Source of the DNA: a virus | Lineage: Duplodnaviria; Caudoviricetes | Direction: 5' to 3' (one strand) | Virus record (IMG/VR): IMGVR_UViG_3300035530_000066 | Location: 1 to 42,677 of that record | Length of the DNA stretch: 42,677 nt | Shown: one piece after another, positions 23,148 to 41,437 of the stretch | Numbering within the stretch: the first letter of the stretch is position 1 | Layout: every line of letters starts with the position of its first letter | The notes under the pieces: model-generated | The model's database searches: none | What the model saw: only the letters and a program-made list of their open reading frames with translations | Told to the model about the DNA's origin: nothing | Made by a program: the position numbers and the translations under genes

Positions 23148-25352
23148 ATGAGTAATAATGCTTTTAAAGACTTTGTCGCGCAGTTGGAAGAATATCAGAT
23201 CGAAACCGATGAAGGTGCTCTGTCTCTGATTGAGAAAGAGACCATTGGAAAAATCTGGAATAAGTCACTTGACTTCCTCGAGAGTCGTAATCTGGTGTCT
23301 GGTGCTGGATTGGAATCTCTCAATTCTTTCGATAGGCCCATCAGTAACCTCAGTCAGAATACAACCCTTAGCCATGTTGGCGTTGAAGCAATTGTCGATT
23401 TCTGTCGTGACTGTGATATTGCTAACGACCAGCTGTTTGCCGCAGCTTGTAATGTTGGACACCTCCTTTCCCACAACGGAAGTATGTCTGAACATTTCAA
23501 TTCTGAGAGAGCTGGCATTGAATCTCTTGACAATGTTAACTTTCAGGATCTTGGTAGTGTTTTTGGTAGTTATTCCGCAGCTACTCTGAAGCAGGATGCT
23601 TCTGCAGCTTTGGAAGCTTTTGGTCAGGATGTCGACAAGCTGACAACCGATATTCGTATCAATATCGCTATTACCATCATGAAGTTTCACAAGAATATCC
23701 TTGATAGGATTATGTTCCGTAAACCTTGTGATTCTAACGTGATTCAGTTTTCCGTTCCTTATCATGAAGTCTATGACCTGGAAAAGGCTGCTGCTAAAGA
23801 TACTCGTGTTCGGAATCTTGGAGATCATCGAGTCAACTTTATTGACCTTTATAAGGAACCCGGAACTGCCAATACTGAAGCTAAGAAGATCATTCCTCTG
23901 AAAGCTAACGACACTGGCGCTACTGCTAAGTTGGTTGCTGACGAACAGATCCTGTTCGGTAAGGAAGTCAACCTGTTTGACATGGCTCTGGACGCTACCA
24001 AGTTTGGTCATAGTCATATCGACTATACCGATTTGGTTTCTGAAGGTGTCCTGTTCGATACAGCTTTTCTGACGATTACTGAGGATAATGAAGGTACTAT
24101 CAGAGAAGAGATCTTTGCTATTCCAATGAAGATTCGTTCTGGTGCACGTTTCCAGATGAGAAACAATTCTCGAGATTCCGCGGATCGTGACTGTCGTATC
24201 TCCGAACGTGTCAACTTCAACAAAGATACAACCAAGGCTGATGGTACGGCTTCTAGTGTTTTGGCTGCATTTGCTGGCGATGCTTATCTTCAGCTGAGCC
24301 TCAACATCACCGGTGGTATCAACCTCAAGACTGCTGATACTATGGTTCAGGGTCAGGTCTCTGGCGTTGTTGTAACAGAAACTGGCGAAACTCCTGTTGC
24401 GGCGGTTACTGACCAGTTTAGTAAACTGTCTTTTGAACTGTCTCACTATACTCTCGATGCTCGTTATAGTGAAGAGAATATGCGTAAGACCACAGCCGCT
24501 GTTCGTATGAATAAGCGTCCTATGGCTTACGAAATCCCAGTCGGACGTAACTACGTTGTTGACTATTCTCTCGCTCAGACCAAACCTACTGAAGTTCTCG
24601 GTACTGTCGCTCAGCTGATTTCGATCGGTAATGATGATCGTGGTCTTAAGCTGATCACTGCTACTATGGATCAGGTTTATGATAGGCTTGAAGCTGAGAG
24701 TGGCGGAAGTATGTTTGCTGACCATCGTGACCGTGTCGCATTCGATTTCGTTGCCGGTAACAAAGTCCTTCCGTCGATCTTCAAGGGTGAGATTGATCTG
24801 GCTAACGTAGAATCAGTCCGTAGCTCTGATATCCTTTCCGACGTTCGCTGTCTCGTCGAGAAGTTCTTGTTGGAGATTACTGCCAAGATGCACAACGATA
24901 GTATGTACACGAGTGCTCTGGATAATGGCGAAAAGCCTCATTACAAAGTCGTCACTTCCAGCCCCATTCTTGCTACATGTTTCAGTATTCCTCACGTCCA
25001 CAACCATCTGAACCTGAAGGTTGGTGTTGATGGTGAGACTGTCGAATATGCTCGCATCCTCCCCAACGGAACTCGTCTTGATATCATCACCACTACGTTT
25101 AATAGTATGATTGATAAGATCATCATGATTCCGTATCGGAAGAATAATCCTCAGTCTGAGTTGAACTTTGGTGTGAACTGCGATCGTGGTCAGTTTGTCG
25201 CTAACTATACTCCTGTAGTCAATCAGGGCGTTTCTCGTCGGGTAGCTGTTAACTCTCGAGAAATTCCTTATACCACTAACCCTCTCGGTGCCATCATCCA
25301 GGTCAAGAATGTATCTCAGTACTTCAACGACTTTGGTACCCTCGACATCTAA
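23148..25352 (+). CDS. Major capsid protein (phiKZ gp120-like)
   Basis: 734 aa, high-expression codon bias, propeptide with GLE/GVE/GIE/ALE protease-type sites (ALEAFG), downstream terminator, synteny with the helicase. Confidence 0.88.
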   Translation: MSNNAFKDFVAQLEEYQIETDEGALSLIEKETIGKIWNKSLDFLESRNLVSGAGLESLNSFDRPISNLSQNTTLSHVGVEAIVDFCRDCDIANDQLFAAACNVGHLLSHNGSMSEHFNSERAGIESLDNVNFQDLGSVFGSYSAATLKQDASAALEAFGQDVDKLTTDIRINIAITIMKFHKNILDRIMFRKPCDSNVIQFSVPYHEVYDLEKAAAKDTRVRNLGDHRVNFIDLYKEPGTANTEAKKIIPLKANDTGATAKLVADEQILFGKEVNLFDMALDATKFGHSHIDYTDLVSEGVLFDTAFLTITEDNEGTIREEIFAIPMKIRSGARFQMRNNSRDSADRDCRISERVNFNKDTTKADGTASSVLAAFAGDAYLQLSLNITGGINLKTADTMVQGQVSGVVVTETGETPVAAVTDQFSKLSFELSHYTLDARYSEENMRKTTAAVRMNKRPMAYEIPVGRNYVVDYSLAQTKPTEVLGTVAQLISIGNDDRGLKLITATMDQVYDRLEAESGGSMFADHRDRVAFDFVAGNKVLPSIFKGEIDLANVESVRSSDILSDVRCLVEKFLLEITAKMHNDSMYTSALDNGEKPHYKVVTSSPILATCFSIPHVHNHLNLKVGVDGETVEYARILPNGTRLDIITTTFNSMIDKIIMIPYRKNNPQSELNFGVNCDRGQFVANYTPVVNQGVSRRVAVNSREIPYTTNPLGAIIQVKNVSQYFNDFGTLDI

Positions 25353-26123: not shown

Positions 26124-27788
26124 TTACCTATACTTATACCCATTTTGTATCATTTCTTTTAAACACAATTCTTCAATTTCTAGATAGTTAGGTAATCCAT
26201 AATACATTTCACAAATATACATAGAGTTTTCTTTAGGACTTATAGCTTGGGAGAAATAATACTGAGTCTCTTTTCTTGATTTATTTTCAATCTGAATAGC
26301 TGTACTTAATTTAGTTTCTTTACTGATATTACATGCACATTGAGTATTTGGATAATATGCTGAAAAATCTTCATCTGATACAAATACATGCAACATCGTT
26401 TCAAAATCCGGGCGTTGAGCTATAGCATTAATCCCTACACCTTTACTACTCTCAGGCTTTAGGACTGTACCTCCAAAATTTTGTATCAGCTTTGTAAATT
26501 CAGTTTGCATTTCAGAGCCAGCAGATGCAGGAACTTTACCATTTTTCATACAATAATCAAACAACGAATTAGTTACGCAAACTGTCTGTTTCCCGAAATC
26601 GTCAAAAGATGTAATACCTGAAAGCAAATACAAACTATTGATATCTTCATTTTTCCATTCCATTAACATCAACGACAAAGCATCAACTATATTGTATACT
26701 ACATAGTCAATAAATCGTCTAGACTGCATAACTAGATGAGATTCTTCTTTACCTAATGATAGTTTTTGCAATTCCATATTTTCATGCTTAAGAATATTGG
26801 CAAGAGTATAACTCGGAAGATACCCTTTAGCTTTTCTTAAACGTCCATAAAGTGCCTCGCAGTCAATAAATTGAGTATACCCTGTAAGATAAAACCAATG
26901 CCACTTATCAATAAAGTGATCTACCTTTCGTTTATCTTCTTTATAAAAAGCTTTTCGATATATAGAAGGTACGTCTGGATGGCACATAATATCGGTAGCA
27001 CTCTCACCATTCAACTCTAATCGCTTAAGTATTTGAGGAATATCAAATCCTAAATTCCAAATACCTACAAAATCTGTTTTATTTTCGTGGAGTTTAGAAA
27101 AAATCCATTTAATGATATCAACTTCATTTTCACAAATTTGATAGTATATTTCCAAATTATACTTTTCAATAGTCGGTTTCAGTTCTACATCAACTAACTC
27201 TTTAACTTTATCTAAAGTAATAGCCTTCTTTATAGTACCATGTTCTTTAGTTTCTATTACTTCGTGTAGATAATATTTGTGAATTCCTACATATATTTTG
27301 TTTTCATGAGTGAGTGTAATGAGATTAATTTCTCCCAAACTCCCTGGAATAACTGAAGTTTCAATATCAAGCATGCCCTTGGTAAAAGGAATAAATTCTT
27401 CATCTTCAAAGTTTATATTGTATTGTCTACGAACTAATGTATTTATGGAAATATCTACCCCATAAATATAGGGATAATTACACAACTTTTTAATATTTGT
27501 ATATCCTCTAGGGGGATACCCATATATCTTCTTATGGATTTCATAAGCTAGATCTTTTTCAAATACTTTAAATTCATCTAACTCATCCAAGTCACAATAT
27601 TCTTTTTTAAATTGATGGGTTTGTTTACCTTTCTTAGTAATCCAAAAAGATCGCATGGGATCTCTATGTATCACCAGTTTGGGTTGTGGATTACCATTAT
27701 CATCTATATAACTAGCTTTAACAACAACAGCGTCTGAATGCTGTTCCTTATTATACACATAAGTAGCATGATTCCATTGCAGTTTCAT
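26124..27788 (-). CDS. Split family B DNA polymerase, exonuclease plus motif A subunit (phiKZ gp82-like)
   Basis: ExoI LDIETS, ExoII WNLGFDIP, ExoIII YNIVD, motif A DFSAYYP; motifs B and C are absent. Confidence 0.87.
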   Translation of the reverse strand: MKLQWNHATYVYNKEQHSDAVVVKASYIDDNGNPQPKLVIHRDPMRSFWITKKGKQTHQFKKEYCDLDELDEFKVFEKDLAYEIHKKIYGYPPRGYTNIKKLCNYPYIYGVDISINTLVRRQYNINFEDEEFIPFTKGMLDIETSVIPGSLGEINLITLTHENKIYVGIHKYYLHEVIETKEHGTIKKAITLDKVKELVDVELKPTIEKYNLEIYYQICENEVDIIKWIFSKLHENKTDFVGIWNLGFDIPQILKRLELNGESATDIMCHPDVPSIYRKAFYKEDKRKVDHFIDKWHWFYLTGYTQFIDCEALYGRLRKAKGYLPSYTLANILKHENMELQKLSLGKEESHLVMQSRRFIDYVVYNIVDALSLMLMEWKNEDINSLYLLSGITSFDDFGKQTVCVTNSLFDYCMKNGKVPASAGSEMQTEFTKLIQNFGGTVLKPESSKGVGINAIAQRPDFETMLHVFVSDEDFSAYYPNTQCACNISKETKLSTAIQIENKSRKETQYYFSQAISPKENSMYICEMYYGLPNYLEIEELCLKEMIQNGYKYR

Positions 27789-34818: not shown

Positions 34819-35358
34819 TTACAACTCGTATACGTAAATATCTATGTCGCTAAATATATTACCGATTATAGATTCTACCTTATTCCAATCACCTCTAGCT
34901 AATCCACAACCAATCTTAGGAATACCAATAGTGTGATCGTACCAGTTGTCATGGATCAGTTGCATACAAGATTCGACTGCATCCAAATACAACATATCAT
35001 TACAATTCCAATATGTATATTGTGTATATGCGTTGATGATATACTTATGTGAAGTATCAATGATATGTTTTGGAGATGGTGTACCCGCTATATGATCATG
35101 GAACATTACTCCATATGCTGGTGGAGCTGTTCTGAGCGCATAGGGTGTTACTGAACTATATGTTAAAGTACCCAATTTATTTCTATCACCTTTATCTGTA
35201 AACTCTATATCGACGAATTGAACAATATCATAGTTTTCCTTTATCTGTTTAGCGATACCTTTTCTCATCGTATGAAAGCAATTACACCCATGAGCTATTG
35301 TAGCTACCTCACCACAATCAAAAGCTTTAAGTAGATCACCTTTTCTATATATGATCAT
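34819..35358 (-). CDS. Macrodomain protein (Poa1/TARG1/DarG-like ADP-ribose hydrolase family)
   Basis: KGDLL, IAHGCNCFHTM.KGIA, IINAYTQ, IPKIGCGLARGDW. Confidence 0.88.
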   Translation of the reverse strand: MIIYRKGDLLKAFDCGEVATIAHGCNCFHTMRKGIAKQIKENYDIVQFVDIEFTDKGDRNKLGTLTYSSVTPYALRTAPPAYGVMFHDHIAGTPSPKHIIDTSHKYIINAYTQYTYWNCNDMLYLDAVESCMQLIHDNWYDHTIGIPKIGCGLARGDWNKVESIIGNIFSDIDIYVYEL

Positions 35359-37356: not shown

Positions 37357-38226
37357 TTAAAAATCCTTAGCAAACTCGAGTTCAGATAGATGTTTAACAG
37401 AGTAGCCACCAGCCCCTCTATGACCACCCCCTTGATATCTTTCACACAATTTACCAACATGAATATTTTTCTTCGGATCAACTTCACGAACCGATACTTT
37501 CCAATGTCCTCTATTATGCCGATAAAATCCGATAATCAAATCATGCTTAACTGGATCAACTACACTATCAAACATCATCGAATTGACTAATCCGACATTG
37601 GCAACGATAGCGACATATCCACAAAAAGTACTCTCAAAAGCTCTTGATTTCATAAGAATTCTATTATCTCTTATTTTTCTAGATAAGATCTTTCTACCAA
37701 TACGAATAGTCTTATCGACGAAATTGTCATCATCAAATAATTTATTCCATAGAACAAATGCTTGCTTATTATTATTGACTGGAAATAGATCCATGTCGGA
37801 TAGACCTTCTTCAAATTCCATCACATCAGGCATATCCATAAATCTGCCAGTATCATAACATCCAATCAACTTAACTGCTTTGGGAAAAGGTACATCAGGA
37901 TATACATATTGCCAAGTCAATTCTGTACCACACATACTTGAATCTCTAATACCTTCAATATCTTCTCCTATAATTTCATGAACCTTATTGATAGCTAATT
38001 CGTGATGATCAATCCATATCAATCTACAATTCTCTTTAAGCCACAACATATCTTCAGGTTCGAATGTGAAGTCAACTACATATACGGTTTCTCCTTTTGC
38101 CAGTCTATCTTTTCTCAATTCATAACCATAATTAACCGGGACAGGATAAGCTGTCGGATCGGCACGTTTAATAATAGCAGCAGCAGCTTTACCATCCGTA
38201 TCGATATGAAAGTATACTGTAGACAT
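37357..38226 (-). CDS. DHH-DHHA1 family phosphoesterase
   Basis: H.DTDG, VVDF, WIDHH, SVR, GGGHRGAGG. Confidence 0.92.
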   Translation of the reverse strand: MSTVYFHIDTDGKAAAAIIKRADPTAYPVPVNYGYELRKDRLAKGETVYVVDFTFEPEDMLWLKENCRLIWIDHHELAINKVHEIIGEDIEGIRDSSMCGTELTWQYVYPDVPFPKAVKLIGCYDTGRFMDMPDVMEFEEGLSDMDLFPVNNNKQAFVLWNKLFDDDNFVDKTIRIGRKILSRKIRDNRILMKSRAFESTFCGYVAIVANVGLVNSMMFDSVVDPVKHDLIIGFYRHNRGHWKVSVREVDPKKNIHVGKLCERYQGGGHRGAGGYSVKHLSELEFAKDF

Positions 38227-38285
38227 AAGTCTTCTCCTTTTAATAAAAGATTGTATTATTAGATAGATGATATATATACATTTTA

Positions 38286-38298
38286 ATAATATATACTT
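38286..38298 (-). promoter_or_regulatory. Putative early promoter (AAGTATATATTAT)
   Basis: Variant of the shared motif, 60 nt upstream of the DHH ATG. Confidence 0.45.
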
Positions 38299-38328
38299 AT
38301 CTTAAAAATCAAAAAAAGAAATAAATAG

Positions 38329-38358
38329 AGAGAGGTACCCTATGTTGGGTACCTCTCT
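38329..38358 (-). terminator. Intrinsic terminator
   Basis: AGAGAGGTACCC-tatgtt-GGGTACCTCTCT with a minus-strand U-rich tail. Confidence 0.75.
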
Positions 38359-38359
38359 A

Positions 38360-38572
38360 TTACTCACTAATCGAACTAGCTAACTCGTTTAAACCTTCAA
38401 TCCTCTCGAGTAGTAACTGTTCTCGATCCCGCTCATTATTACATAGGAGATTTAATCGTTTAAACTCCACTTGTATCTCGCGAAGTTCTTTAATCTCCTC
38501 ATGGACCTTTGAAATTTCTCTCAGAATTTGTCCCAATTGTCGTGCCATTAATGACGAATTTTCAGTTAACAT
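38360..38572 (-). CDS. Small coiled-coil protein
   Basis: 70 aa, GAGG RBS, heptad pattern. Confidence 0.7.
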   Translation of the reverse strand: MLTENSSLMARQLGQILREISKVHEEIKELREIQVEFKRLNLLCNNERDREQLLLERIEGLNELASSISE

Positions 38573-38652
38573 ATTATTTCCTCTCTTGATTGGAATCGGA
38601 GGAAGGCATACTCTAATATATTAGAGTACACCTTCCCTGGATATATTCGAAG

Positions 38653-39018
38653 TTATCCTCGCGTTAATGCGAAGATACGAAACTCCGACATGTTGCCGGA
38701 AATTTCGACTTCGAAAAACCCAGTTTCCTCATCCATACAATCAATGGGGAGTTCCTCTTCCTCCCCATCCTCGCTCTTGACGAGGATGTTAAAATTTGTG
38801 CGCTGATTGATGAGCGAAGGCTTTACCCAGCCTTCTACTCGAATCAGTCCTTGGAGTGGGAGCGGAATAATATCCTCAACCTCGACTAACTCCACCCTAC
38901 TTTGGGCGGAGTCAGTTAGGTTTCGGATAAGTAAAGCTCGCCCTGAATCTCCATAGACTAACCTTCCCCCCAGCCTGCACTGCTCAATATCATAATCTAC
39001 GTCGTGAATCATATACAT
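38653..39018 (-). CDS. Small acidic hypothetical protein (putative early gene)
   Basis: 121 aa, GGAGG RBS, duplicated leader, hairpin at 38601-38636 downstream. Confidence 0.8.
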   Translation of the reverse strand: MYMIHDVDYDIEQCRLGGRLVYGDSGRALLIRNLTDSAQSRVELVEVEDIIPLPLQGLIRVEGWVKPSLINQRTNFNILVKSEDGEEEELPIDCMDEETGFFEVEISGNMSEFRIFALTRG

Positions 39019-39105
39019 AATGCACCTCCAGGTTTGATAAGTTATAATTTAAGAATATAGTAATATATTTTGAATTGCCTCACTATATTAGGCAATAAAA
39101 ATTTG
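39013..39105 (-). repeat. Duplicated leader, copy 1 (promoter motif, pseudoknot, RBS)
   Basis: Direct repeat of 39356-39448 (offset 343); ATACATAATGCACCTCCA is identical in both; TATATTAC at 39060-39067. Confidence 0.85.
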
Positions 39106-39142
39106 GGGGGAGAATCCTAATATATAAGGATCCCCCCGAGGT

Positions 39143-39361
39143 TTAGCATGTCCAAAACGCTACCCTGACGTGGATAGCATCTACGGGCCGAACAACAATG
39201 CCTCCGCGAGGACATAGCTCACGGATGAGGGTGCCCTCTTCACCTTCATCCGTACATTCCTCAAACATATCATCCATAAGTGGACGATATGTCTCCTCAC
39301 CATATACAAAACTTCCGTTACGATCTACCTCTACTACCTTTTCGTTATATTCTACATACAT
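39143..39361 (-). CDS. Small acidic hypothetical protein (putative early gene)
   Basis: 72 aa, GGAGG RBS, duplicated leader, GC-rich hairpin at about 39105-39137 downstream. Confidence 0.8.
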   Translation of the reverse strand: MYVEYNEKVVEVDRNGSFVYGEETYRPLMDDMFEECTDEGEEGTLIRELCPRGGIVVRPVDAIHVRVAFWTC

Positions 39362-39448
39362 AATGCACCTCCAAGTTTAATAAGTTCTATTAGGAGAATA
39401 TGGTGATATACTTTAAACTGTCTCACCACACTAGACATTGAAATTTTG
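39356..39448 (-). repeat. Duplicated leader, copy 2
   Basis: Direct repeat of 39013-39105; TATATCAC lies at the same 42-nt spacing from the ATG. Confidence 0.85.
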
Positions 39449-39569
39449 TAAAACTTTAATTAAACCGCTTTGATTTTTACACCAGCGGCAAGGTGCAGAT
39501 AGTAGTCTCAAGCAGTATCTTAGGATACCTCGACATGACCTATCGTCGGCTAATGATCCAATCTATGGA

Positions 39570-39836
39570 TTACCAATCCATATCGATTACATCACCATCC
39601 ACATAATCGGGATGGTGGGATGCAACCACGACTGCGCCAATCCGAGGATCGTATGTACATACGACACTGGCGGCGGAGCCGTGAGCGATATGGAAAGCCA
39701 TTCCATATCTCCATACAGGACCACGACCACCGATAACCACAATATCACCTTTGGACATTTGTGGCATATTTGGTATCGGATCTGTAGGAGCGATTGGACC
39801 ATCAACACCGATATCCCACTTTACGATATCAGGCAT
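39570..39836 (-). CDS. csx3: Csx3/Crn3-family cyclic oligoadenylate ring nuclease homologue
   Basis: VVIGGRGPVWRYG.AFH.AH....V.TYDPRIGAVVVASH matches the Csx3 signature (GRGPIWLY...H..H...YDPRLGAVVV.SH); AAGGAG RBS. Confidence 0.88.
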   Translation of the reverse strand: MPDIVKWDIGVDGPIAPTDPIPNMPQMSKGDIVVIGGRGPVWRYGMAFHIAHGSAASVVCTYDPRIGAVVVASHHPDYVDGDVIDMDW

Positions 39837-39933
39837 GATAGACTCTCCTTAAAGATCTTTCGTACTCGAATAACCCTAAGATTATTCAATTAAAAGATCA
39901 TAAGTTAAAGATTATAGTACATATATTACAAAA

Positions 39934-39946
39934 ATAATATATATCT
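39934..39946 (-). promoter_or_regulatory. Putative early promoter for csx3 (AGATATATATTAT)
   Basis: Same 13-mer as at 32666, 98 nt upstream of the csx3 ATG. Confidence 0.55.
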
Positions 39947-40018
39947 ATATATGTTTGAATAGCTTTTATCGACAATGATATAAGCATAAATTATTAATTT
40001 TAATAAGAGGAATTTAGT

Positions 40019-40375
40019 ATGGAAAAGAAAAAATTTTTATATGTATTATCTTGTAGTAGTGATAATGTAAGTAGAGCAACTCGATGTTTTCAATTTGCTC
40101 GAGTATCTCAAGAACATGGACATGATACTCATGTGTTCTTAGTTGATGATGCTGTAAGTATTTGTAATCCAGAATTGGTATCCAGAATCCATGCACCAAC
40201 TGGAGATTCTTTAGAAGATCATTTGTCTGCATATATGCTTGGAAGTGGAAAAGTATGGGTATGTACTCCGTGTGCCAAAAATAGGAATATTACAAATATC
40301 CCTGACGGATTTGAACTAAGTACAGCTCATAAGTATTTAGAATTGGCAGCTGAACGTGAAGTTATTTCTTTCTAA
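40019..40375 (+). CDS. DsrE/DsrF-like family protein
   Basis: RA...F.FA, GH...VFLVDDAV, VWVCTPCA..R.I, LA.E..VISF; 118 aa. Confidence 0.85.
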   Translation: MEKKKFLYVLSCSSDNVSRATRCFQFARVSQEHGHDTHVFLVDDAVSICNPELVSRIHAPTGDSLEDHLSAYMLGSGKVWVCTPCAKNRNITNIPDGFELSTAHKYLELAAEREVISF

Positions 40376-40393
40376 ATTTATAAAATAGGTTAT

Positions 40394-41437
40394 GTGACTA
40401 TGGAATCCATACTACCTATCCGATTCCAATATATTCTTCATATGGTAGGGTGTTTATTTATACTATTTCAATTTTTGCATATCGGGTTAAAACCTAGATA
40501 TATTCAAAAAATTGTATATGGGATGTATTGGTGGATTGTAACATATCTTGGTCTATATAGTGGATATATATTTGTAACTTATTATAGCGGAAATGCGCAG
40601 ATAGCTAAATTGGGATATTATTATTTAGTATTTTTATCAGGATTATCTATATCACTATCTATATTTACAACAATCAAAATTATCAAACAAAAAATATATA
40701 AGTTAGTATTATTAGATTTTTGGATACTAATAATTTTATTAACTGGATTATCATTAATACAATTAGATCAATCGATAGGGTTATTAGGAAAATCCTACAA
40801 TCCACTCACTTGGTGGATACCTATGTTTTGTAAACATACCTCTCTAATTTTATATTTAACAATTTGGTGGTTTATAAATTGGGAATTAGATAATGGTTAT
40901 ATTTGTTGTAGTATAAAAAAGACCATGTCTGCTCCCGTTGTAGTAGTTTGGATGTACATTCTATGTTTAATTATTCCTATATTTCAAGTACCCTTATCTA
41001 TATTTAGAGTAGGTCTTACTACTATACACAACTACCAAGCTCCAACCACAGTAACTCCAATATTAAGTTTTTTATGGTCACCAATGTTTTCAGTATTACT
41101 AATCTGGATACTGTTGCGATTTTTCATGAAATATAATAACTATGTCATAATGAATAAGAATAGATTTTACTACACAACTAATATAAATCTATATTGGATA
41201 TTTATATCCTATTTTGTCGGAATAATATCAGCTATATTTATAAGCTATGTAGGAAATGCTCTTAATTGGAATATTCATTTTTCTATGATAGTTTGTATAA
41301 TCATATTTACTATTACACATATGCTTGAACGTACAATTGGTGCAAGTAATTCTAAATATATACGACCTACTTCTTATGGGTGGACTTTAGGTTGTGGTAT
41401 GTTTACATCTTATGTCCTATTATCCTATTCATTATAA
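40394..41437 (+). CDS. Polytopic membrane protein
   Basis: About 9-10 hydrophobic segments over 347 aa; no recognisable soluble domain. Confidence 0.75.
   Translation: MTMESILPIRFQYILHMVGCLFILFQFLHIGLKPRYIQKIVYGMYWWIVTYLGLYSGYIFVTYYSGNAQIAKLGYYYLVFLSGLSISLSIFTTIKIIKQKIYKLVLLDFWILIILLTGLSLIQLDQSIGLLGKSYNPLTWWIPMFCKHTSLILYLTIWWFINWELDNGYICCSIKKTMSAPVVVVWMYILCLIIPIFQVPLSIFRVGLTTIHNYQAPTTVTPILSFLWSPMFSVLLIWILLRFFMKYNNYVIMNKNRFYYTTNINLYWIFISYFVGIISAIFISYVGNALNWNIHFSMIVCIIIFTITHMLERTIGASNSKYIRPTSYGWTLGCGMFTSYVLLSYSL

Follow-up and report, generated by a model that had tools for sequence, protein, structure and literature searches.

The window considered here, a 42,677-nt stretch of DNA that makes up the whole of its viral record, carries on its minus strand a small gene (csx3/crn3; 39570..39836) whose 88-residue product is, on the evidence of sequence and modelled fold, a genuine member of the Crn3/Csx3 family, and which probably provides the phage with a ring nuclease directed against type III CRISPR, one that would cleave the cyclic tetra-adenylate (cA4) alarm molecule of the host during infection. 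This role, raised as a candidate in an earlier note on the same DNA, is the best reading of the gene, and is based on the family membership, fold, residues and stand-alone context of the enzyme. The enzyme and the strategy are both already known; it is the pairing of Crn3 with a phiKZ-like phage that is unreported in the literature searched.

The family assignment draws on several lines of evidence. The Pfam Cas_csx3 profile (PF09620) scores the ORF at 63.9 bits against a cut-off of 21, TIGR02579 scores it at 63 bits against 55.4, five PADLOC Csx3 models match it, and the sequence match in the PDB is the Csx3 of A. fulgidus (AfCsx3; E 5e-10). The motifs of the protein are GRGPVW (residues 37-42), H49-x-x-H52 and YDPRIGAVVVASH (62-74). 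An AlphaFold2 model built on a 55-sequence alignment has a pLDDT of 96.7, and its best listed PDB matches are all AfCsx3, with a TM score of 0.80, an rmsd of 1.9 A and 35% identity over the structural alignment. The profile and structure searches against A. fulgidus Csx3 that had been proposed earlier both found a match, and the Csx3 identity and signature first read from the sequence are confirmed by profile cut-offs, fold and residues. The DUF1874 fold of AcrIII-1/Crn2 was not found (Pfam gives only Cas_csx3, and no AcrIII-1 stands among the listed fold matches), and the SAVED domain of AcrIII-2 is absent from the protein in Pfam, fold and PADLOC searches.

Fundamental to the proposed activity are five residues, H49, H52, D63, R65 and H74 (minus-strand codons 39690-39692, 39681-39683, 39648-39650, 39642-39644 and 39615-39617, respectively), which in the sequence alignment to AfCsx3 correspond to H57, H60, D69, R71 and H80, and which are invariant or nearly so across 55 aligned relatives. 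According to the available text of PMC7371418, H60 and D69 of AfCsx3 are essential, R71 and H80 are strongly needed, and Mn2+ is likely held by H57 and H60. Fold, the five residues and the G-R-G-P loop are alike in the phage protein, A. fulgidus Crn3/Csx3 (PDB 6VJG, 3WZI, 6YUD) and M. mazei Csx3. Within the cA4-contact loop of AfCsx3 (S44-G45-R46...I49), G45 and R46 are kept as G37 and R38, whereas S44, which makes a side-chain contact with cA4, is replaced by Gly and I49 by Val, both at positions that vary among the aligned relatives. The phage copy further differs from AfCsx3 in having no type III locus, in being about 16 residues shorter (88 vs about 104) with one predicted helix, and in belonging to a separate subfamily.

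Csx3 is the only CRISPR-class PADLOC match among the 42 of 42 ORFs scanned, no CRISPR array occurs among the 20 largest of 39 repeat families, and no Rfam match reaches its gathering score, all of which agrees with the earlier observation that the window holds neither cas genes nor an array. The gene stands alone in so far as it has no cas neighbours, but the earlier description missed its membership in an optional four-gene cassette of about 1.6 kb, headed by csx3 (38328..39929, minus strand; left edge uncertain by 14 nt, 38314-38328), which is missing from a sister phage, L071. In L071, which shows 82-95% nucleotide identity to the window over four main blocks, the DsrE leader is joined straight to the DHH-gene leader and window positions 38328-39929 are skipped; 17 of 21 window genes between 28.5 and 42.6 kb have counterparts there, and the four missing are exactly those of the cassette. 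The backbone flanks are a DHH/DHHA1 phosphoesterase gene (37357..38226, minus; 95.5% identical in the sister phage) and a DsrE-family gene (40019..40375, plus; 98% identical). csx3 is an accessory gene of variable presence, a common trait of anti-defence genes. The GC content of the cassette is 41.8% vs 32.3% elsewhere in the window, and that of csx3, at 48.3%, is the highest of the 42 window genes (median 32.8%); because these values lie far above the backbone, gain of the cassette is favoured over loss on compositional grounds, though unproven.

The other three cassette genes, all on the minus strand, encode products of 72 (39143..39361; acidic, with TATATCAC 49 nt upstream), 121 (38653..39018; acidic, with an exact TATATTAC 49 nt upstream) and 70 residues (38360..38572). 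None has a family in Pfam, PHROG, NCBIfam or PADLOC and none matches the fetched relative loci; an Atlas search with the 72-residue protein gave no usable match, and the 121-residue protein has no relative in IMG/VR. A carbohydrate-binding/DUF4627 lead for the latter from Atlas was unconvincing (125-133 shared features, low-confidence model) and was rejected. Two of the cassette genes have in common a 93-bp promoter and ribosome-binding-site module (39356..39448, minus), which is 78% identical to its copy at 39013-39105. An intrinsic-terminator-like hairpin closes the cassette (38329..38358, minus), both of whose edges are T-rich look-alikes. Strong hairpins also lie between cassette genes at 38601-38636, 39098-39137 and 39854-39899 (z -4.8, -3.3 and -2.5 in the folded stretches), and are possible terminators, processing sites or operators.

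The last of these is the predicted csx3 leader hairpin (39854..39899, minus), which ends just before the ribosome-binding site and belongs to no Rfam family, with nothing near a gathering score in 38200-40100; the search of that stretch likewise gave no lone CRISPR repeat in the leader, though few repeats are covered by Rfam. The strong ribosome-binding site described earlier is borne out by a Shine-Dalgarno-like AAGGAGAG at 39843..39850 (minus), 6 nt before the csx3 ATG. Further upstream is a candidate cassette-type promoter module (39909..39925, minus), which by eye resembles those before the 72- and 121-residue ORFs with a 1-nt insertion, and then, where the backbone DNA borders the cassette, the phage promoter-like motif GATATATATTAT (39934..39945, minus), from which the sister phage version differs by one mismatch. 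The earlier claim of an early-type promoter copy holds in part: ATATATATTA is present upstream of csx3 (39935-39944, minus) and the motif is enriched by position, but its count alone is unremarkable (five in the window vs 2.44 +/- 1.67 expected; 9 of 100 shuffles reach five) and its distance is unusual, 105-108 nt before the ATG vs 27-67 nt in seven of the ten genes preceded by its looser form. Four of the five copies, that of csx3 included, stand upstream of genes. With motifs picked after inspection of the sequence, ATATATATTA precedes 4 of 27 genes with intergenic leaders, where shuffles average 0.44 (p 0.001); the looser TATAT[TC]A[CT] precedes 10 of the 27 vs 3.6, a number that none of 1000 shuffles reaches. 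ATATATATTA resembles phiKZ TATATTAC and an OBP/N1M2 motif described as early (PMC7058600 and PMC8244752, accessible text), and by analogy with phiKZ and OBP csx3 may be expressed early. An exact TATATTAC at 39922 was dropped as a csx3 promoter, for it sits on the plus strand and carries a variant in four of eight oil-field runs examined (T>C at 39926 in X2, X3, X5 and X17, which also alters the minus-strand csx3 leader). A sigma-70 scan of the window was uninformative (10 sites vs 6.7 +/- 2.2 expected).

What kind of phage carries the gene? PHROG matches (38 ORFs) include a major head protein (phrog_3231; 23148..25352, plus), a DNA polymerase (phrog_3011; 26124..27788, minus), a DnaB-like helicase (phrog_3213), UvsX, RuvC, SbcC and an Rz-like spanin. 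Of the 311 phage records that the polymerase matches, the best 30 belong to jumbo phages (229-322 kb) and are 25-30% identical; a tblastn search of 50,697 phage records gave nothing for the head protein. Since the head protein is unmatched and the polymerase so divergent, the phage is placed by its sequence in a distant, deep-branching phiKZ-like lineage. With the phiKZ-like jumbo phages (Chimalliviridae) it has in common the polymerase, head protein and helicase families and a similar promoter motif, together with PhuZ in L071 (4506-5567; phrog_4733, E 2.9e-45), past the end of the window; it differs from them in the low polymerase identity, the unmatched head protein and the lack of an identified chimallin. 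L071 (32,815 bp) extends beyond the window, carries terminase and is rated 12% complete, which implies a jumbo genome of roughly 270 kb; both records are fragments. No chimallin ORF was named in PHROG scans of the window and L071 (about 52 kb), and a genome walk through IMG/VR, which ended at terminase, led back to L071 and otherwise to one short contig, again with no chimallin identified. Of the earlier description as a nucleus-forming phiKZ-like phage, the second half stands, while the first, with no chimallin gene identified in about 52 kb and PhuZ only in L071, is no more than plausible.

An Rz-like spanin implies that the host has an outer membrane. The named DsrE homologues (3 of 53 matches) come from Desulfogranum, Desulfopila and Desulforhabdus at 34-40% identity; these are sulfate-reducer genera, and a weak hint of a sulfate-reducer-type host may be taken from them. 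The DsrE-family gene is accompanied by a 347-residue membrane-like ORF without a family (together 40019-41437, plus), conserved in the sister phage, and the two are a possible auxiliary sulfur-related module. At 34819-35358 (minus) the window also encodes a Macro-domain/DarG-like protein (PADLOC DarG, E 7.9e-11; NCBIfam far below cut-off), found in the sister phage as well, which is a possible second anti-defence protein judging from that match.

Relatives of the phage Csx3 were gathered by pattern scans from a 13-sequence alignment, whose exact short patterns undercount (2 viral, 52 metagenome and 14 genome loci), by tblastn (3 plasmid records) and with the Csx3 profile (658 clusters at E<=0.001, gene context not included). 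Selected neighbouring ORFs were scanned, 136 against Pfam, 29 against PHROG and 26 more against Pfam. Among cultured phages there was no tblastn match in 50,697 records; the protein has no PHROG family and no BFVD structure match at E<=0.001, and one apparent relative (L001) was a spurious match of 25 residues. As to the survey of csx3 in related phages suggested earlier, the gene is absent from the sister phage, and the same subfamily is present in other phage-like loci. In a 67-row tree, from which six near-duplicate loci, two that were misaligned, P0010, P0011 and fragments shorter than 60 residues were left out, the phage protein falls within a 39-row subfamily (support 100/98), separate from AfCsx3, together with 16 CRISPR-linked loci, 8 mobile-element loci, 6 short loci that gave no cas match and 8 proteins without context. 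Planctomycetota type III operons make up most of the CRISPR-linked loci, and Card1-type or APE2256-type genes adjoin many of them. The mobile ones are L002 (terminase, RadC), L004 and L017 (RadC), L015 (topoisomerase; the weakest call), the conjugative elements L006, L009 and L010, where csx3 follows TraD coupling-protein genes, and a prophage-like Pyramidobacter record in which crn3 lies two genes after a repressor/HTH pair. In several phage-like loci (L002, L003, L004, L017) a RadC/JAB gene was also seen no more than about 1 kb from csx3.

More narrowly, the phage protein belongs to an 18-row group (95/95) in which none of the nine context-bearing loci, eight of them contigs under 3 kb, has a cas gene among the ORFs scanned; RadC occurs in three, one of which also has terminase, and five more have PHROG-matching neighbours. 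In a second tree of 42 rows this group was not recovered as a clade, and the CRISPR-linked copies nest among the mobile ones, with the outgroup root on a very long branch. In AU tests on groups named after the first tree had been inspected, placing the phage Csx3 with 14 CRISPR-linked rows was rejected (p 0.017), and placing it with a set that included the two mobile rows nested among them was not (p 0.068). Six of the seven best-scoring relative loci are non-CRISPR, and because the best-scoring relatives of known context are mostly in phage-like loci outside CRISPR, a mobile gene pool is, as far as sequences can tell, a more likely source of csx3 than a host CRISPR locus directly. The earlier proposal that the phage captured a host ring nuclease thus gives way to a mobile donor, which fits better, although the CRISPR-linked group is not firmly excluded (p 0.068). 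The Planctomycetota CRISPR-linked copies may themselves descend from mobile ones, as has been proposed for Crn2/AcrIII-1.

Nucleus-forming jumbo phages escape DNA-targeting defences and stay open to type III CRISPR. Such RNA-triggered signalling, which the phage nucleus would be unable to block, would be countered by the destruction of cA4. In the reading preferred here, csx3 would be transcribed from the phage promoter at the cassette edge, host Cas10 complexes would recognise phage mRNA and generate cA4, and the phage enzyme would lower its level, so that Card1/Can2, Csx1 and other effectors that respond to cA4 would be less active; systems that use cA3 (NucC) or cA6, and target cleavage by Cas10 itself, would be unaffected. 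The choice of cA4 as the presumed substrate is made because cellular members of the subfamily adjoin Cas10 and Card1-type CARF effectors. In the published mechanism (PMC7371418, available text) Csx3 dimers stack head to tail around cA4, and Mn2+-dependent cleavage yields linear di-adenylate; in the phage protein the D63/R65 face would likewise meet the H49/H52/H74 face of the next stacked dimer. The cassette would have come from the mobile gene pool and been kept where hosts use cA4 signalling. The neighbouring DHH/DHHA1 phosphoesterase could in principle clear linear oligoadenylates, but the sister phage has it without csx3.

Type III immunity is effective against nucleus-forming phages; its native route is cA3/NucC, and the cA4 effector TtCsm6 works too, as far as the accessible portion of bioRxiv 2022.06.20.496707 goes. 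Because TtCsm6 can stop such a phage, the selective pressure from cA4 effectors is real, and since the native defence there runs through cA3/NucC, the benefit of a cA4-specific enzyme would be confined to cA4 systems. Several precedents argue for a modest effect: in vivo, the relief given by M. mazei Csx3 was only partial beside that of AcrIII-1, AcrIII-2 brought none in its assay (PMC12751052, available text), and the orphan ring-nuclease homologue PfCsx15 has little or no activity and sequesters cA4 rather than cleaving it. The Gly in place of S44 and the distant promoter motif also count against the anti-type III reading. Cellular Csx3 was moreover read by its authors as a host regulator and not as an Acr.

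The high GC of csx3 (48%, against about 32% for the contig) might be taken to mean that the contig is an assembly chimera with a host CRISPR locus. Such an artefact is scarcely credible, because single contigs bridge the cassette edges and the neighbours are not cas genes. The 24 runs listed all carry the label oil field metagenome with the year 2020 and may stem from a single campaign; in X2 and in X4 a single 1,817-bp contig (38167-39983) crosses both edges, and in X5 separate contigs bridge each (39368-40474 and 38101-38706). A second contig in X2 and in X4 carries the cassette-less join 38313-39930, so that both forms are reliably seen in two of the eight runs examined, at similar depth (20 vs 15.3 in X2, 32.8 vs 28.5 in X4). 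No such join was found in X1, X5, X7, X10 or X17, where a depth of about 5 is uninformative, and a joint in X3 (38329-39931) was discarded as unreliable, with a 22-nt side and loose ends. The same coexistence, which marks the cassette as dispensable, lends something to a different view, that the cassette is a passenger from another mobile element, kept or drifting on account of another ORF, with a Csx3 that is active or was recently so yet irrelevant in the host of this phage; the high GC of the cassette suggests recent arrival, and three of its four genes have no family. That view is unlikely, given that frame, ribosome-binding site and the full set of catalytic residues are intact even though no relative exceeds 73% identity, and that unrelated phages and conjugative elements carry the subfamily time and again away from CRISPR loci, a recurrence which suggests repeated selection for activity.

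The activity could also be directed elsewhere. The shorter form of the subfamily, its one predicted helix and the Gly for S44, along with the precedent of PfCsx15, would suit a sponge or nuclease for another signal, such as a CBASS-type cyclic oligoadenylate, or cA4-binding filaments without efficient cleavage. This we regard as improbable, since the catalytic His/Asp/Arg set is complete, the cellular members keep company with type III effectors, and the characterised Csx3 proteins are cA4-specific. Very improbable is a role in RNA housekeeping as a Mn2+-dependent deadenylase or oligo(A) trimmer, an in vitro activity that was the first to be described for AfCsx3, perhaps in partnership with the DHH phosphoesterase: Csx3 binds cA4 much more tightly than RNA and is much more active on it, and the sister phage retains the DHH/DHHA1 gene, which lies directly downstream of the cassette, without csx3.

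As an anti-type III ring nuclease, the phage Csx3 would resemble AcrIII-1 (viral Crn2, DUF1874), likewise a small virus-encoded destroyer of cA4 with the same presumed purpose. AcrIII-1 differs in its unrelated fold, in being metal-independent (eLife paper, as far as available) and in being proven in vivo, whereas the phage Csx3 is a candidate. That AcrIII-1 is the classic viral ring nuclease, and of a different fold, was rightly said earlier, but from the accessible literature it is not the sole one: AcrIII-2 (viral SAVED; PMC12751052), Crn4b of phages and plasmids (PMC12830947), Csx16 and Csx20 are also host-type ring-nuclease domains found alone in a virus, all of families other than Crn3, and AcrIII-2 has a composite active site that sandwiches cA4, as in Csx3. 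When 28,114 phage genomes were searched with profiles that included Crn3, AcrIII-1 was reported in 36, Csx20 in 4 and Csx16 in 2, and the main text, in its available part, does not name Crn3 among the phage families (PMC12409355). Term searches found no mention of Csx3 in PMC7824862, PMC11656645 or PMC10848311; a 2026 review (PMC13282480), in the portion accessible, names no counters to nucleotide signalling other than predicted phosphodiesterases and Tad1, and lacks the term 'ring nuclease'. No paper on a viral Crn3 was found in a search made largely outside subscription journals. The closest parallel is the crn3 of Pyramidobacter sp. YE332 (NZ_CP133039.1, WP_317539484.1), which is of the same subfamily at 55% identity and stands alone in a phage gene context; it differs in lying in a temperate-type Synergistota element, was auto-annotated by RefSeq and groups with the CRISPR-linked branch, and no functional study of it was found.

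A bolder proposal, which we hold to be possible yet doubtful, is that the Crn3 subfamily of phages, prophages and conjugative elements constitutes an undescribed anti-CRISPR family, with the present copy destroying cA4 in a nucleus-forming jumbo phage. If true, a nucleus-forming lineage would possess in Crn3 a tangible answer to such signalling, and viruses would have recruited one more ring-nuclease family; the view that the cooperative, Mn-dependent mechanism of Crn3 is fitted to regulation in the host and not to attack would also be put to the test. The surprise is limited, the anti-cA4 strategy itself being well known. A direct comparison is offered by the natural plus/minus cassette pair, and by the mobile and CRISPR-linked members of one subfamily.

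Some further features came to light among the relatives and the sister phage. The IMG/VR csx3 copy near RadC at L003:1941-2084 contains an in-frame TAG, either a broken gene or an alternative code. At L019:3467-4969 a Csx3 domain is apparently fused to the C-terminus of a 501-residue protein whose gene closes a Cmr operon; this may be a fusion of effector and ring nuclease or else a read-through artefact. In L035, L036 and L038 archaeal-type Csx3 genes lie beside RNase H or actin-like genes, with no cas among the ORFs scanned, and are possibly further mobile copies from another subfamily. Finally, a second variable region between the sister phages is located at L071:11508-12898, upstream of a thymidylate synthase gene.
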